A DNA stretch of 20,000 nucleotides from an uncultured virus (IMG/VR IMGVR_UViG_3300047160_009708) (IMGVR_UViG_3300047160_009708); one strand, 5' to 3'. Shown: positions 1 through 11,052, counted from the first letter of the stretch. A program made the numbers and translations. The notes: generated by a model from the sequence alone, not told the origin.

Positions 1-981
1 CGCCTCGTCGTGGGCGCGGGTGCCGACCCACTGCCCGAACGCGCGCGCCCACACTTCCGACTTCCTGGCCATGTAGTCAATGTAGCGGTGAATCCACGCG
101 TTGGTCAAAGTCACCGGTCCTCCCACGTCCATACGTGCCTTAGCCTTCATCAGATCCTTATACATGCGCGTCTTCTCAATCGCCGCGAACACCGGCGCGA
201 AGTAGGGGTCGTGGTCATAGTCGCGATCGGGATGGTGCGGTGCCAGATTGACGCCCGGCACACCCACGCCATCAAGCCAGTGACCGGTCTCGTGCGCGAT
301 CGCCAGGTAGGTCAGCCTGGAAAACGAATTGATCTCCAGGCTACTGCACGAGCCGTCATCCTTGAAGTAGGTGACCCCCTCATCGCCGGGCTGGCCCAGG
401 AATTCCTTGACCTGGATCGGCGCCAGCTTGCCGTCCGACATAATGCTATCAATGGATTTATATGTCTTCTCGAACGCGGCGCGCTTGTCCTCCACGCTTT
501 GGTCATACTTCACCATCGAGGACACCTTGGTCCCCTCGCCCGGCTGCACATGCACGTCCGCGACCGGACGCGCCACGCGCGGTCGGCGCGGCGGCTTGGG
601 CGCTTCGGTCGGCGTCGGCGTCTCGGCTGGCTTGGCCGGTGTGGGCTCGGGCGCCGCTGCGGGTTTGGGCTCGACCGGTCGGGGCGCCTCTACGAGCTTG
701 TGGCCGTTGCCCTTATCCGGCACCTTGGCGAACTCGCCCGCGTTCTCAGGCTGGCCCCTCGGGTGCTTCTGCTCGTCCCACCCCGACCGCGCGTACCGCT
801 CTTTCGCTTGCGCCTTGGGCGGGAACGTTTCGCCCTTCCTGAGATAACGGACGTCGCCACCCTCGAACAGCGTCATCAACTCACGCACCGCGCGCGCACG
901 CGACCAACCGAATCGCTTCATGATCTCCCGAATGCCCTTTTCGGTCGGCTTCCGGCCCGGTTGTGGCTGCGCGTACTTCAC
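1..981 (-). CDS. Putative virion-associated zincin metallopeptidase with HPRG motif (partial, runs off left edge; not in ORF track)
   Basis: Manual translation from GTG at 981 (GTGA overlap with the portal stop at 978-980) is open to base 1: MKYAQPQPGRK...KERYARSGWDEQKHPRGQPENAGEFAK...Pro/Ala linker...IAHETGHWLDGVGVPG...DRDYDHD...EVWARAFGQWVGTR. It is clearly paralogous to the portal C-terminal region. Confidence 0.85.
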   Translation of the reverse strand, partial: MKYAQPQPGRKPTEKGIREIMKRFGWSRARAVRELMTLFEGGDVRYLRKGETFPPKAQAKERYARSGWDEQKHPRGQPENAGEFAKVPDKGNGHKLVEAPRPVEPKPAAAPEPTPAKPAETPTPTEAPKPPRRPRVARPVADVHVQPGEGTKVSSMVKYDQSVEDKRAAFEKTYKSIDSIMSDGKLAPIQVKEFLGQPGDEGVTYFKDDGSCSSLEINSFSRLTYLAIAHETGHWLDGVGVPGVNLAPHHPDRDYDHDPYFAPVFAAIEKTRMYKDLMKAKARMDVGGPVTLTNAWIHRYIDYMARKSEVWARAFGQWVGTRAHDEA

Positions 982-8467: not shown

Positions 8468-8560
8468 TGTTAGAATGAACGAGCCCACCGGGAGATGGAC
8501 TCGACTCCCGACGGGCTCTGACCACGGGCACCTTGATTGAGGCAAGGCACGTCATGGCTA
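8468..8560 (+). promoter_or_regulatory. Extended -10 promoter and structured 5' leader of HNH gene 1
   Basis: TG-n-TAGAAT at 8468-8476; stems gagccc/gggctc and cgggag/ctcccg; ccttg/caagg hairpin before the ATG; homologous to 10386-10475. Confidence 0.65.
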
Positions 8561-9126
8561 GGAAAAAGCATACCCGATCCATCAACGAAGAGAGCATACG
8601 GATCTACGGCGAGCGCAACAAAATCCTGCGCTCACTGGGATTCTCATCGTATGGCGACTACCTGGCCAGTGAACTCTGGGCAGGTATTCGTGCGCGTGTC
8701 CTCGCAGGCGCTCGGCACAAATGCGAGACGTGTGGCCGATATGCTTCAGAGGTCCATCATGGAGCATATACACGATCATCTCTTGATGGCAGAAACCTGA
8801 CTAAGCTATTCGCGATCTGTCGGATCTGCCATGAGGATATTGAGTTTCGCAAGCGCGACGGCGCCAAACTCAGTCCCGTCGAAGCCACCAGTAAGCTGTT
8901 GGGTAAGCGGTCGTACGTGCGGCAGAAAAAAAACCTTACCAAGCAGTCACGATCGGAACCACGGATCACGGAAGTGTTCCAGGAATACAATCGGCGCGGA
9001 GCCGAAATTGTGCGGCTGAAAGCCGTAGTGTCCTGGGCCAACCATGAGATGCTCGGGATGCGCGCCGAAATTGAGCGGTTGACGGCCGAACTAGCGCGCG
9101 CACAAAAAGCCGACACCCATCCTTGA
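8554..9126 (+). CDS. HNH endonuclease (Cys-type, CxxC...HH...CxxCH) with C-terminal coiled coil
   Basis: YGDYLASELW..IR.RVL....HKCETCG...EVHH...N...L..ICRICH; visibly lower GC than its flanks; antisense to neighbours. Confidence 0.85.
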   Translation: MARKKHTRSINEESIRIYGERNKILRSLGFSSYGDYLASELWAGIRARVLAGARHKCETCGRYASEVHHGAYTRSSLDGRNLTKLFAICRICHEDIEFRKRDGAKLSPVEATSKLLGKRSYVRQKKNLTKQSRSEPRITEVFQEYNRRGAEIVRLKAVVSWANHEMLGMRAEIERLTAELARAQKADTHP

Positions 9127-9156
9127 GCGTCGGCCTTCGTGGTTTGAACGTGTGGG

Positions 9157-10122
9157 TCATGCGACCTTGGCGACCTTGGTCCGTGACTTACGTGTTCGCT
9201 TGGCCTTGGGTCTGGTGGCCTCGGGCTCAGCGGTCGGGACGGTGCCGCCGGGTTGAAGTTTGACCATCAGGTCCACGGCCTTTTGTGCCGCGCTGGCGGC
9301 CGTGAAGATGGCTTTGTTGTCGGCCTTGAGGCATTTGAGCCAGTGTCCCAGGTAGCTCGCGTGGTCGGCCCGTGGCTCGTTCTCGATGCCCAGGTGGGCA
9401 CAGGTGAACGCGGCGCCCATTTCGGCGACTAGCTCCTCGGCCGCGTACTCGGGGTTACCGAAGAGGTTTTTGATGGACCGGTTGAGCCGCGTCTCGGCGC
9501 CCGTCCAGTGGGTCACTTCGTGGGCGAGCGTGCCGTAGTAGGCCGTGCGGTCCTTGAAGTTTTCGGGGTTGGGCATCTGGATGAAGTCGGCCGACGGCCG
9601 GTAGAACGCCTGATCGCCGCCGTGTCGGACGTCGGCGCCGGTGTTCTTGAAGAATTGCTCGGCGTGTGCCAGGTGCTCGAACTGGGTTTGCTCGGGGTTG
9701 GCGTCGGGTTGGACGCCGAAGCGTTCTTCAAGCCCTTCGGTCTGGTCCAGGTTAAAGACGCAATAGTCGCGGACGAACCAGAAGCCGCCGCGTTTGGTGG
9801 TGGTTCCGTCTTCGGCCTCTTCCTCTTCGCCGCCCGCCGTGCCCCAGTAGACGATGTGGGTGCCCTTGGAACCGGGCTTGACGAAGCCGCCGTACTGCTT
9901 GACCTGGTTAAACGTCATCCAGTAGGGGCTCTGAAAGCCTTCACGGTCGGCGGTAAGCCAGAGCACCAGGGTGTTAATTCCCCGATAGGGTACGCCGTTG
10001 TGGCGTAGGGGCGTGGCGATCGAGCCACCGCGCCCGGCCTTCCACGGCCGCGCCCACGGTCGGACGCCTTTTTCGAGGGCCTCGATGATCTGATTCGTGA
10101 TGCGGTCATAAATGTTCTGCAT
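9157..10122 (-). CDS. ardC: ArdC-family antirestriction / ssDNA-binding protein (ArdC-N plus zincin MPTase domain)
   Basis: IYDRITNQIIEALEKGVRPWARPW, YRGIN, WMTFNQ, VFNLDQ, AFYRPSADFIQMP, TLAHEVTHWTG..RLNR, YAAEELVAEMGAAF, HASYLGHWL..LK.D.KAIF.AAS.AQKA. Confidence 0.95.
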   Translation of the reverse strand: MQNIYDRITNQIIEALEKGVRPWARPWKAGRGGSIATPLRHNGVPYRGINTLVLWLTADREGFQSPYWMTFNQVKQYGGFVKPGSKGTHIVYWGTAGGEEEEAEDGTTTKRGGFWFVRDYCVFNLDQTEGLEERFGVQPDANPEQTQFEHLAHAEQFFKNTGADVRHGGDQAFYRPSADFIQMPNPENFKDRTAYYGTLAHEVTHWTGAETRLNRSIKNLFGNPEYAAEELVAEMGAAFTCAHLGIENEPRADHASYLGHWLKCLKADNKAIFTAASAAQKAVDLMVKLQPGGTVPTAEPEATRPKAKRTRKSRTKVAKVA

Positions 10123-10157
10123 ATTGCAAAGCTCCCTTCTAACCTTGGTACGGTTAG

Positions 10158-10186
10158 AATATAGCTTTGGTTCAATATGCAGTCAA
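10158..10186 (-). promoter_or_regulatory. Sigma70-type promoter of ardC
   Basis: TTGACT-17 nt-TATATT on the minus strand, with a GGGAG RBS downstream. Confidence 0.75.
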
Positions 10187-10201
10187 TTTAATTTCGGGCG
10201 G

Positions 10202-10372
10202 TCATCCCTGGACGATGAAGCCGAAGACTTTCCAGCCGATGATGACGAGGATGAGCCAGATCAGCAGGGTCGGACCCCACGCCTTGTATTCACGGGCCTG
10301 CGCGCGAAAGTTCCACCCGCAGAAGAGGAGCGTTCCGAGCATGAGTGCCCAGAACAAAATGGCTAGCAGCAT
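10202..10372 (-). CDS. Small two-TM membrane protein (56 aa; not in ORF track)
   Basis: Manual translation MLLAILFWALMLGTLLFCGWNFRAQAREYKAWGPTLLIWLILVIIGWKVFGFIVQG; GAGG RBS. Confidence 0.75.
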   Translation of the reverse strand: MLLAILFWALMLGTLLFCGWNFRAQAREYKAWGPTLLIWLILVIIGWKVFGFIVQG

Positions 10373-10385
10373 GGGCGGGCCTCGC

Positions 10386-10475
10386 TATAATGAAGCGAGC
10401 CGAACGGGCGTCGTTACTCACCCGCGCGGCTCTCGCCACAACCAACCTTGATCAGAGCAAGGCACGTCATGGCTA
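10386..10475 (+). promoter_or_regulatory. -10 box and structured 5' leader of HNH gene 2
   Basis: TATAAT at 10386-10391; stems gagccg/cggctc and cggg/cccg; ccttg/caagg hairpin; homologous to 8471-8560. Confidence 0.65.
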
Positions 10476-11008
10476 CTAAGCATCGTACATTATCCTGTGA
10501 AGAGTGGCGCGCGGTTCCGGGCTATGAGGGCTGGTACGAAGTATCGAGCATGGGCAACATGCGCCGCGTTGGTCCGATCAAGGGACGACCGGTTTGCCGC
10601 GAACTGCGACCGGCCACCAGTGGCAGGGAATACAAGCATGTTGGCCTTCGCAAAGGCGGTTCCAAGAAGGTATTCAACGTGCACAGACTTGTTGCGATCG
10701 CGTTCCTTGGACCGCCGCCGACTCCGAAGCACCAGATCAATCACATCGACGGCAATAAGTTAAACAACAATGTAAGCAATCTTGAATGGGTGACGAGCGC
10801 TGAAAACGAAGCACACGCTGCGCGGATGGGCCTTAAGGCTCGTGGGAGTGAGAATGGGGCTGCAAAGCTAACAGAGTCAGACATTCCTGCGATCCGTGCC
10901 TTGAAGGGCCATGAGCCACACCGCGTGACAGCAACGAGATATGGTGTCTCAGAGGTCGCCATTAGCCTCATTCAGTTAGGTAAAACTTGGAAACATATTA
11001 AATCGTAA
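10469..11008 (+). CDS. NUMOD4-HNH homing endonuclease (I-HmuI-like) with C-terminal HTH
   Basis: EEWRAVPGYEGWYEVSSMGNMR (NUMOD4); VHRLVAIAFLG...INHIDGNKLNNNVSNLEWVT..EN (HNH_3); GSENGAAKLTE...YGVS..AISLI..GKTWKHI. Confidence 0.93.
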   Translation: MATKHRTLSCEEWRAVPGYEGWYEVSSMGNMRRVGPIKGRPVCRELRPATSGREYKHVGLRKGGSKKVFNVHRLVAIAFLGPPPTPKHQINHIDGNKLNNNVSNLEWVTSAENEAHAARMGLKARGSENGAAKLTESDIPAIRALKGHEPHRVTATRYGVSEVAISLIQLGKTWKHIKS

Positions 11009-11021
11009 TCGCGACATCCAG

Positions 11022-11040
11022 GCTCTCCCCACGGGAGAGC
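11022..11040. terminator. Hairpin between convergent genes, possible terminator
   Basis: gctctccc-cac-gggagagc lies between the stops at 11008 (+) and 11053 (-); there is no strong U-tract. Confidence 0.45.
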
Positions 11041-11052
11041 ATATAATCATGG

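Follow-up and report, generated by a model that had tools for sequence, protein, structure and literature searches.

No selfish genes are commoner in phages than homing endonucleases, whose restraint is known mainly from a few hairpins of phage T4. A stretch of 20,000 nucleotides (nt) from an uncultured virus (IMG/VR IMGVR_UViG_3300047160_009708), analyzed at its full length and called the window in the following, raises the question why two HNH endonuclease genes with dissimilar products begin with one and the same structured element, and on which strand this element would act. A previous, sequence-only reading had seen in it a portable promoter and cis-regulatory RNA cassette within the leader of the nuclease mRNA. 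Its portability, its covariation and its tie to nucleases (25 of 40 copies) held up, whereas the structure turned out to fit an antisense RNA better than an mRNA leader. We consider it likely that the cassette encodes a cis-antisense RNA similar to SymR, which would cover the ribosome site of the nuclease mRNA and repress it. This is based on a sub-threshold match to SymR from end to end, on a promoter-like box located inside the open reading frame (ORF) at SymR geometry, and on covariation within the antisense fold.

Two copies of one element at the starts of two HNH genes

Positions 8471-8560 and 10386-10475 constitute two copies (A and B) of one element of ~90 nt, each heading an HNH gene. 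Alignment with MAFFT brings the -10-like box, both stems and the start codon of the two copies into register, just as had been read from the sequence. The last 19 nt, which span the start codon, are identical at 19/19 positions (8542-8560 and 10457-10475). This exact 19-mer occurs twice in the window, where 0.01 matches are expected and none of 200 shuffles reaches two, and the same pair of copies was also reported by the window repeat finder (as D8). The compensatory change formerly noticed in stem 1 (GAGCCC/GGGCTC versus GAGCCG/CGGCTC) is genuine, and both copies fold independently into the described two-hairpin shape, with sense-strand energies of -34.3 kcal/mol for copy A (z -2.47, 5/200 shuffles as good) and -32.6 kcal/mol for copy B (z -3.64, 0/200 shuffles as good). 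The antisense strand reaches -43.1 kcal/mol for copy A (z -5.27) and -45.1 kcal/mol for copy B (z -4.25), in each case with 0/200 shuffles as good. Paired positions are identical between the copies in 34/36 cases versus 23/42 for unpaired ones (Fisher p 7.5e-5), a comparison that is partly circular, as the structure tested came from those same two sequences.

The two genes and the predicted parts of both copies are as follows:

8554..9126, plus strand: HNH A gene, a Cys-type HNH endonuclease of 190 amino acids (aa); PHROG HNH families, E 1e-7 to 1e-3
8471..8476, plus strand: TAGAAT, -10-like box of the presumed HNH A mRNA and, read on the minus strand, part of the U-rich tail
8531..8547, plus strand: mRNA-side hairpin 2 (CCTTG / CAAGG), with the Shine-Dalgarno (SD) word AAGG at 8544-8547; from the fold
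8468..8559, minus strand: predicted SymR-like antisense RNA of copy A, ~90 nt, from opposite +6 of HNH A to the U-rich tail; from the fold
8567..8572, minus strand: putative antisense -10 box TATGCT, 7 nt upstream of AGCCAT, within HNH A codons 5-7
8521..8558, minus strand: predicted antisense 5' stem-loop (P1/P2) of copy A, over start codon and SD; from the fold and family covariation (columns 1-14 / 28-41)
8481..8518, minus strand: stem 1, predicted terminator hairpin of antisense RNA A; from folds, family covariation and strand stability
10469..11008, plus strand: HNH B gene, a NUMOD4 + HNH_3 endonuclease of 179 aa; HNH_3 4.9e-15, NUMOD4 9.1e-8, phrog_59 7e-52
10386..10391, plus strand: TATAAT, -10-like box of the presumed HNH B mRNA and, read on the minus strand, part of the U-rich tail
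10446..10462, plus strand: mRNA-side hairpin 2 of copy B, with SD AAGG at 10459-10462; from the fold
10383..10474, minus strand: predicted SymR-like antisense RNA of copy B; from the fold
10482..10487, minus strand: putative antisense -10 box TACGAT, 7 nt upstream of AGCCAT, within HNH B codons 5-7
10435..10473, minus strand: predicted antisense 5' stem-loop (P1/P2) of copy B; from the fold and family covariation
10397..10432, minus strand: stem 1, predicted terminator hairpin of antisense RNA B; from folds, family covariation and strand stability

The assignment of the two proteins to different classes was borne out, with NUMOD4 and HNH_3 domains in HNH B and matches to PHROG HNH families, without any Pfam match, in HNH A. 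A BLASTP comparison of the two at E 10 yielded no similarity, while HNH A has 5303 relatives at E<=1e-3. The same is true of the statement that both genes run antisense to their neighbours and are lower in GC: all remaining plausible genes of the window lie on the minus strand, HNH A and HNH B being the sole plus-strand genes, and the GC content is 0.53-0.57 across the two HNH genes versus 0.62-0.68 in the flanking regions. That the proteins diverge after a few codons fits a local alignment, which finds no significant similarity beyond +7 of the two ORFs (616/2000 shuffles as good). For the DNA this has to be amended, since both HNH ORFs carry an opposite-strand TANNNT box at +14 to +19, so that the shared module extends ~20 nt into the coding sequence. 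A homology of the N-terminal peptides past codon 2 was rejected, as the DNA signal at this place is the antisense -10 box and not protein similarity.

Some further candidates were dropped as well. A minus-strand ORF across the leader was ruled out because indels between the copies shift the frame. A nut/boxA-like antiterminator shows a loose resemblance only, and GCUC sits inside the stem. The R'' consensus of integron attC sites does not fit CCACAAC. Neither target-site duplications nor terminal inverted repeats were found flanking either HNH gene.

Copies of the element in other phages and their cargo

A covariance model built from the two window copies (model R1) recovers just these two within the window. 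Scanning with a pattern for stem 1 only gave 35 viral loci. According to model R1, three of them carry the entire leader, in which the second hairpin differs in sequence; of the remaining 32, most, including L037 and L017, are chance or unrelated hairpins. The motif GGCTCT-nn-CCACAAC, learned from the three full-leader loci, led to 11 loci in a first wider scan, 11/11 of them full-length matches to a second model (R2) at 37-96 bits, and a second wider scan gave 41 loci. After deduplication, 40 distinct copies remained, namely the two of the window and 38 from IMG/VR contigs. The search by covariance model and the tabulation of downstream genes that the sequence-only reading had suggested thus gave 25 homing-type nucleases in three catalytic families: 20 copies precede HNH/EndoVII-type genes of several architectures, 4 GIY-YIG genes (3 with NUMOD3) and 1 a LAGLIDADG gene. 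The remaining cargo consists of 3 DUF2924 genes, 1 serine recombinase (resolvase), 1 tyrosine integrase and 10 familyless genes, several of them very short ORFs. The type of cargo was not part of any search pattern.

Diverged copies in cultured actinobacteriophages were obtained by blastn with one typical copy. In the Gordonia phage ODay the element precedes an annotated GIY-YIG endonuclease, in the Gordonia phage Apricot and five relatives an HNH endonuclease, and in Thermobifida phage P1312 (L095 1586-1687) it heads an ORF of 33 codons. Together with the copies from ODay, Apricot and P1312, the 40 distinct copies form the set of 43 used below. The stop codon of the 33-codon ORF overlaps the GTG start of the 384-aa hypothetical protein P1312_055, which looks like translational coupling or a mis-annotated start.

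Other searches found little. The exact 19-mer combined with hairpin 2 gave no match in viral contigs and two in metagenome contigs (L005, L006), both by chance and inside coding regions; a two-stem pattern with ATG gave a single chance match (L007), and a strict two-stem pattern none in genome contigs. Relatives of HNH A were sought in viral contigs and none was found, the corresponding HNH B search gave 4 distant loci without a leader by model R1, and relatives of the terminase TerL were found neither in viral nor in genome contigs. A megablast of the whole window against phages yielded no match. With the leaders A, B and L076, blastn against phages and plasmids gave insignificant matches only, of which a weak one to P1312 later proved genuine.

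Three observations on individual contigs may be added. Contig L051 contains, 1.3 kb from its main copy, a second and more distant element of the same layout (93-183, minus strand; 19.6 bits with model R2), in which TACAAT and a hairpin GGCCCG...CGGGCC are followed by a short linker and then by an SD hairpin ahead of ATG. This suggests a broader class with other stem sequences. The copies L056 and L069, on one 73-kb provirus contig, are near-identical cassettes ~29 kb apart, each heading a DUF2924 gene. Both lack a gene-strand TANNNT box, and no copy of the family has better U-tracts than their tails (GUUUUGUUUG). In L037, finally, positions 601-637 form a canonical terminator with eight U on the other strand, whose stem hardly differs from stem 1 of copy A in the window (GAGCCCACCGGGAG...); this likeness is either chance or a hint of the origin of the cassette terminator.

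Folding strand, promoter-like boxes and likeness to SymR

Covariation in stem 1 was evaluated on a MAFFT alignment of the 43 copies, which is not fitted to the structure. Double changes occur in 10 of its 13 pairs, amounting to 64 cells versus 22.4 +/- 3.6 in shuffled alignments (0/500 as high) and lying above slid controls. Antisense copies aligned in the same manner pair in 85.4% of the cells across a 5' helix of 14 pairs plus the terminator, with 136 double-change cells versus 55 +/- 6.3 (0/500 shuffles) and a score of 0.317 versus 0.05-0.10 for slid partners.

A DNA-level site, be it a palindrome to which a repressor dimer binds or a site for recombination or nuclease recognition that would serve mobility, is very unlikely to account for this pattern. 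Stem 1 is palindromic as DNA and scores on both strands, and five cargo genes are recombinase-related, all of which would suit such a site. However, the distance between the arms varies (24 versus 26 nt in the two window copies, and wider in the family), the boundaries of the insertions in Gordonia phages described below fall outside the element, and the letters of the upper stem covary freely and tolerate wobbles, which argues for a folded single strand and not for a duplex bound by a protein.

As for the strand that folds, a first hint came from the mismatches, which on the gene strand comprise 34 A.C versus 9 G.U cells. Stem 1 is more stable on the antisense strand in 32/43 copies (p 4.4e-5) and the start region in 41/43 (p 1.5e-8); the mean z is -5.07 for antisense versus -3.08 for sense folds, with the antisense value lower in 40/43. 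Columns 7-9, which were left free by the search patterns, vary only among bases that pair with a G or U partner on the antisense strand (GU 29 + AU 5; AU 24 + GU 7; CG 20 + UG 14). A two-domain antisense fold, with a 5' stem-loop followed by the terminator hairpin, is predicted for 40/43 copies, and the anti-SD word lies at the antisense apical loop in 43/43; for copy A, the loop of this 5' stem-loop is complementary to the loop of the SD hairpin of the mRNA. The presumed antisense tail has on average 4.7 U in 10 nt.

The promoter-like boxes point in the same direction. On the antisense strand, 27/43 copies have TANNNT upstream of AGCCAT at a distance of 7 nt (in 18 copies) or 6 nt (in 9), each of the other offsets tested being represented at most once, and this spacing holds inside the coding sequence of unrelated proteins. 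TTG words resembling a -35 box are often located 16-18 nt further up. On the gene strand, 26/43 copies have TANNNT ahead of stem 1, at a distance of 4-5 nt or, in one case, 7 nt.

This last box would let an mRNA begin at the foot of the hairpin, which is what one would expect if the structure acted in the nuclease mRNA alone, the 5' hairpin stabilizing the transcript and the second one hiding SD and start codon, with no antisense RNA involved. Both window copies do fold in this manner, the SD word lies in or next to a short hairpin in 43/43 minimum free energy folds, and in L053 a full promoter further upstream (TTGACA-17-TATCTT) would transcribe the whole leader; in addition, SD-sequestering hairpins are established for the T4 homing endonuclease genes I-TevI, segB and mobE, according to the description available (PMC2988022). 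We nevertheless regard this explanation as improbable. The sense fold is the weaker one in 40/43 copies, its closing helix comprises 3 base pairs (CCA/UGG) versus 8-14 antisense pairs that make use of wobble, and it leaves both the in-ORF TANNNT at its fixed distance of 6-7 nt and the SymR match described below unexplained. Moreover, the predicted accessibility of the two window starts (0.44 and 0.48) is ordinary, with middle ranks among 27 window starts (these two and 25 other putative ones, many of them unverified); this weakens the case for a strong translational lock in the mRNA. Of the translational repression that had been ascribed to the leader there may remain an additional contribution by the SD hairpin of the mRNA.

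The antisense reading, in turn, is favored by fold stability, the strand-specific wobble pairs and the in-ORF box, and also by the comparison with SymR. In cmscan searches of 16 loci, the antisense strand of 4 loci matched the Rfam family SymR (RF01809) along its whole length (positions 1-77 of 77), scoring 39.1-43.0 bits (E 6.5e-5 to 5.6e-4, and 1.6e-5 to 1.4e-4 when the four loci were searched alone). The matches share AG-CAUGAUU, UUGUG-UUAG and the terminator hairpin, and align with the helices of the model. In the reverse direction, model R2 run on 10 kb of Escherichia coli found the symE/symR locus as its sole match (25.2 bits, E 4.7e-7). By its annotation, E. coli symR begins opposite +6 of the symE ORF, and TAGAAT is located 7 nt ahead of this start; the SymR promoter has been described as embedded in the coding sequence of its target (PMC1891008). 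The former statement that the leader belongs to no named RNA family is therefore right in so far as no Rfam family exceeds its cut-off, but SymR, below that threshold, is a clear relative on sequence and structure-model comparison.

In common with symE/symR, the element would comprise a cis-antisense RNA of ~77-90 nt that starts opposite +6, has its promoter in the first codons of the target (here predicted), and consists of a 5' stem-loop over AUG and SD, a linker UUGUG(A/G)UUAG and a terminator hairpin. They differ in the target, which in E. coli is SymE with its AbrB fold and here homing nucleases, recombinases, DUF2924 and familyless genes, and in the setting, with enterobacterial chromosomes on one side and actinobacterial and soil phages on the other, where the module is mobile together with its cargo.

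Several points weigh against a SymR-like antisense RNA. All SymR scores stay below the Rfam gathering cut-off of 61 bits, so that the element does not qualify as a member of RF01809; in 12 of the 16 loci a SymR match at E<=0.1 is absent, and the window copies give none at E<=10, their best minus-strand match being ctRNA_pGA1 with 17 bits. A search of whole records with RF01809 passed the cut-off in 0/5, although its prefilter loses weak copies and missed the L066 copy found earlier. The likeness could also be partly convergent, since any antisense RNA over SD and AUG must carry CAU and an anti-SD word. Furthermore, GAGCC, GGCTCT, CCACAAC and ATGGC were fixed by the search patterns in 38/40 copies, all else being free, so that the conservation of these letters, and of the P1 wobble pairs formed from them, is partly imposed by the search; copies found free of this constraint number just 6 (L027, L021, L033, ODay, Apricot, P1312). 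The gene strand is rich in C and A also where it is unpaired (CC 15 versus GG 6 and AA 8 versus TT 2 cells), which by itself produces more A.C than G.U mismatches and a better fold of the complement, and the energy asymmetry is thus not purely functional evidence. Lastly, 16/43 copies, including all three from cultured phages, have no antisense TANNNT at 6-7 nt, and a spacer of 4-5 nt between hairpin and U run is poor for an intrinsic terminator.

With these reservations, the following scheme may be drawn for the SymR-like antisense RNA. A mobile cassette of ~110 bp at the start of each HNH gene would control its expression. On the gene strand it would comprise, in this order, a -10-type box, the GC-rich hairpin, a C/A-rich linker (CCACAAC), the SD hairpin, ATGGCT and, in codons 5-7, a -10 box facing in reverse. 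This inner box would drive an RNA of ~85-90 nt on the opposite strand, starting opposite +6, with a long 5' stem-loop whose loop is the complement of the SD, and with the GC-rich hairpin (stem 1) and a U-rich tail as its terminator. The A/T-rich box in front of stem 1 would probably have two roles, as -10 box of the mRNA and as part of this tail. Being fully complementary to the 5' untranslated region, the SD and the start codon, the antisense RNA would pair with the mRNA, probably beginning loop to loop, and the duplex would block ribosome binding or trigger decay, so that nuclease would be produced only if its mRNA outpaced the antisense RNA. The second hairpin of the sequence-only reading would then be the mirror image of the antisense 5' stem-loop; as the mRNA carries such mirror-image hairpins, the SD hairpin may add to the repression. 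We infer from the sequences that either RNA exists, that the two would pair and that translation would thereby be repressed.

The arrangement of box, stem-loop, SD and start codon before different genes also fits the description of the PeSLs of T4-type phages (PMC2839356). Such a promoter-terminator cassette would provide insulation, transcription and homology for shuffling, with any antisense transcript a mere by-product. Copies lacking TANNNT keep a U-rich run on the minus strand (e.g., in L056 and L069), and the stem in L037 that is near-identical to that of copy A is a canonical terminator followed by eight U, both of which would be compatible with a terminator function. An explanation of this type is nonetheless unlikely. 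PeSL loops terminate transcription on the strand of the promoter itself, whereas here the U-rich run is on the opposite strand and the gene strand shows no U run past the hairpin. A bare terminator requires neither a 5' stem-loop over SD and AUG, nor a fixed start at +6, nor an inner box. Besides, a proper U-tract terminator exists in this phage (9100-9141, minus strand), so that the poor tail is not a habit of the host. As described in the same source (PMC2839356), PeSLs are short intergenic repeats that precede varied accessory genes in plastic regions and have been proposed to mediate modular shuffling; they differ from the present element in having sigma70 early promoters, a same-strand terminator and other sequences, and the description mentions neither a tie to nucleases nor an antisense RNA.

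Among mobile elements, IS200 with its antisense small RNA art200 is, by analogy, the nearest counterpart of the proposed SymR-like control. According to the account in PMC4513863, its left end has a terminator hairpin, an SD-sequestering hairpin and art200, which targets tnpA; in both cases a selfish element would restrain its own DNA enzyme, with loops beginning the pairing. No likeness of sequence is apparent, IS200 has one fixed transposase whereas the cassette heads many unrelated ORFs, and its terminator hairpin is situated upstream of the tnpA start site, apart from art200 (PMC4513863). In T4, hairpins at the ribosome-binding sites of I-TevI, I-TevII, I-TevIII, segB and mobE likewise restrain the synthesis of homing endonucleases (PMC2988022). 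There, however, the choice of promoter exerts control, with a late promoter inside the hairpin, while in the present element both hairpins follow the gene-strand box. From gene to gene the T4 hairpins show no homology, and the source describes no antisense RNA for them. The SAS/ESAS repeats of Cluster K mycobacteriophages are also located at the starts of unrelated genes, some with an upstream inverted repeat of variable spacer (PMC3203893). They are, as described there, a 13-bp motif of other sequence with 11-19 occurrences per genome, for which that report gives no link to nucleases or antisense promoters.

Insertion with the nuclease gene, significance and surroundings

Presence and absence of the element in related genomes, for which empty-site alleles had been proposed as a check, could be compared in Gordonia phages. 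Apricot and Crater are near-identical up to 14 nt before the -10 box of the Apricot copy; a block of ~770 bp then extends from this point to ~45 nt past the stop codon of the HNH gene, after which homology resumes. Crater and Asapag lack this block, their two flanking genes lying directly side by side. At another site, ODay has ~480 bp more than Apricot, a stretch that begins 37 nt ahead of the box and ends with the stop codon of the GIY-YIG gene. The cassette therefore belongs to the nuclease gene and not to the resident genome, and box, leader and nuclease are one insertion unit in these phages, with the sharp gene-bounded presence and absence typical of homing endonuclease genes. For the window element itself, four soil runs yielded no empty site or variant, only identical scraps of ~150 nt. 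The GIY-YIG cassette of ODay (L096 1400-2100) lies among tRNA-like sequences beside a tyrosine integrase, with a weak tmRNA-like Rfam match just downstream (19 bits, E 7.8e-4), and this region may be attP.

Taken on sequence, the family points to a conserved mobile antisense-RNA module common to HNH, GIY-YIG, LAGLIDADG and recombinase genes. More tentatively, the SymR-type module could be an old portable safety catch swapped across phyla among DNA-acting selfish genes, with its ~110 bp providing the homology for exchange of the ORF behind ATGGCT; we see this as possible rather than probable. Its scope may include all catalytic families of homing endonucleases, serine and tyrosine recombinases, DUF2924 and SymE, from actinobacterial phages to enterobacterial chromosomes. 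If so, control resembling that of type I toxin-antitoxin systems would be general in homing endonuclease biology, also in Actinobacteria. Such systems have so far been described from Proteobacteria, Firmicutes and Tenericutes (PMC12390103). The proposed antisense control would extend this type of regulation to actinobacterial phages, with the toxicity of the nucleases assumed here. A description of antisense RNA control of homing endonucleases was not found in the literature consulted, whose coverage is incomplete and thus gives no proof of its being unpublished. New in the present data are the lineage, one of actinophages with high GC, a link to SymR that holds in both directions, the position of the inner promoter-like box, and alleles with and without the cassette, which occur naturally in cultured Gordonia phages and make the idea directly testable. 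The cassette could also be used as an annotation marker for free-standing nuclease cassettes and is a candidate for a compact module to repress toxic genes.

The window as a whole is phage-like and high in GC, and its minus strand encodes a Mu-type portal, TerL, TerS and an ArdC-like anti-restriction protein. After the ArdC-like gene, positions 9100-9141 (minus strand) form a canonical intrinsic terminator, a long GC stem with UUUUU (z -2.59), that overlaps the last HNH A codons on the opposite strand; it indicates that the host machinery uses ordinary U-tract terminators. Upstream of a minus-strand gene start at 10122, positions 10127-10169 hold an inverted repeat of 18 nt (83% complementary, 7 nt apart) that extends across the promoter predicted for the ArdC-like gene (sigma70-type, TTGACT-17-TATATT, 10186->10158) and the SD region of this gene. 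Transcripts from this promoter would miss the 5' arm and stay open, while in those reading through from upstream the SD would be paired, a layout in the style of T4 I-TevI. Beyond the stop codon of HNH B, at a distance of 13 nt, a third exact copy of GGCTCTnnCCAC is found at 11021-11052, with a hairpin of 8 bp (GCTCTCCC/GGGAGAGC) followed by TATAAT and CATGG. The number of GGCTCTnnCCAC matches is not significant (4 versus 1.5 expected; 17/200 shuffles as high), and model R1 does not detect this site, which could be a decayed second cassette or the terminator of HNH B. At the other end of the window, the direct repeats D1, D5 and D11, 1115-1133 nt apart and with 74-79% identity, connect 1-1113 with 1124-2240. 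They suggest a tandemly duplicated segment in or beside a gene for a portal fusion of 905 aa, which also has a weak match to the LPD1 domain.

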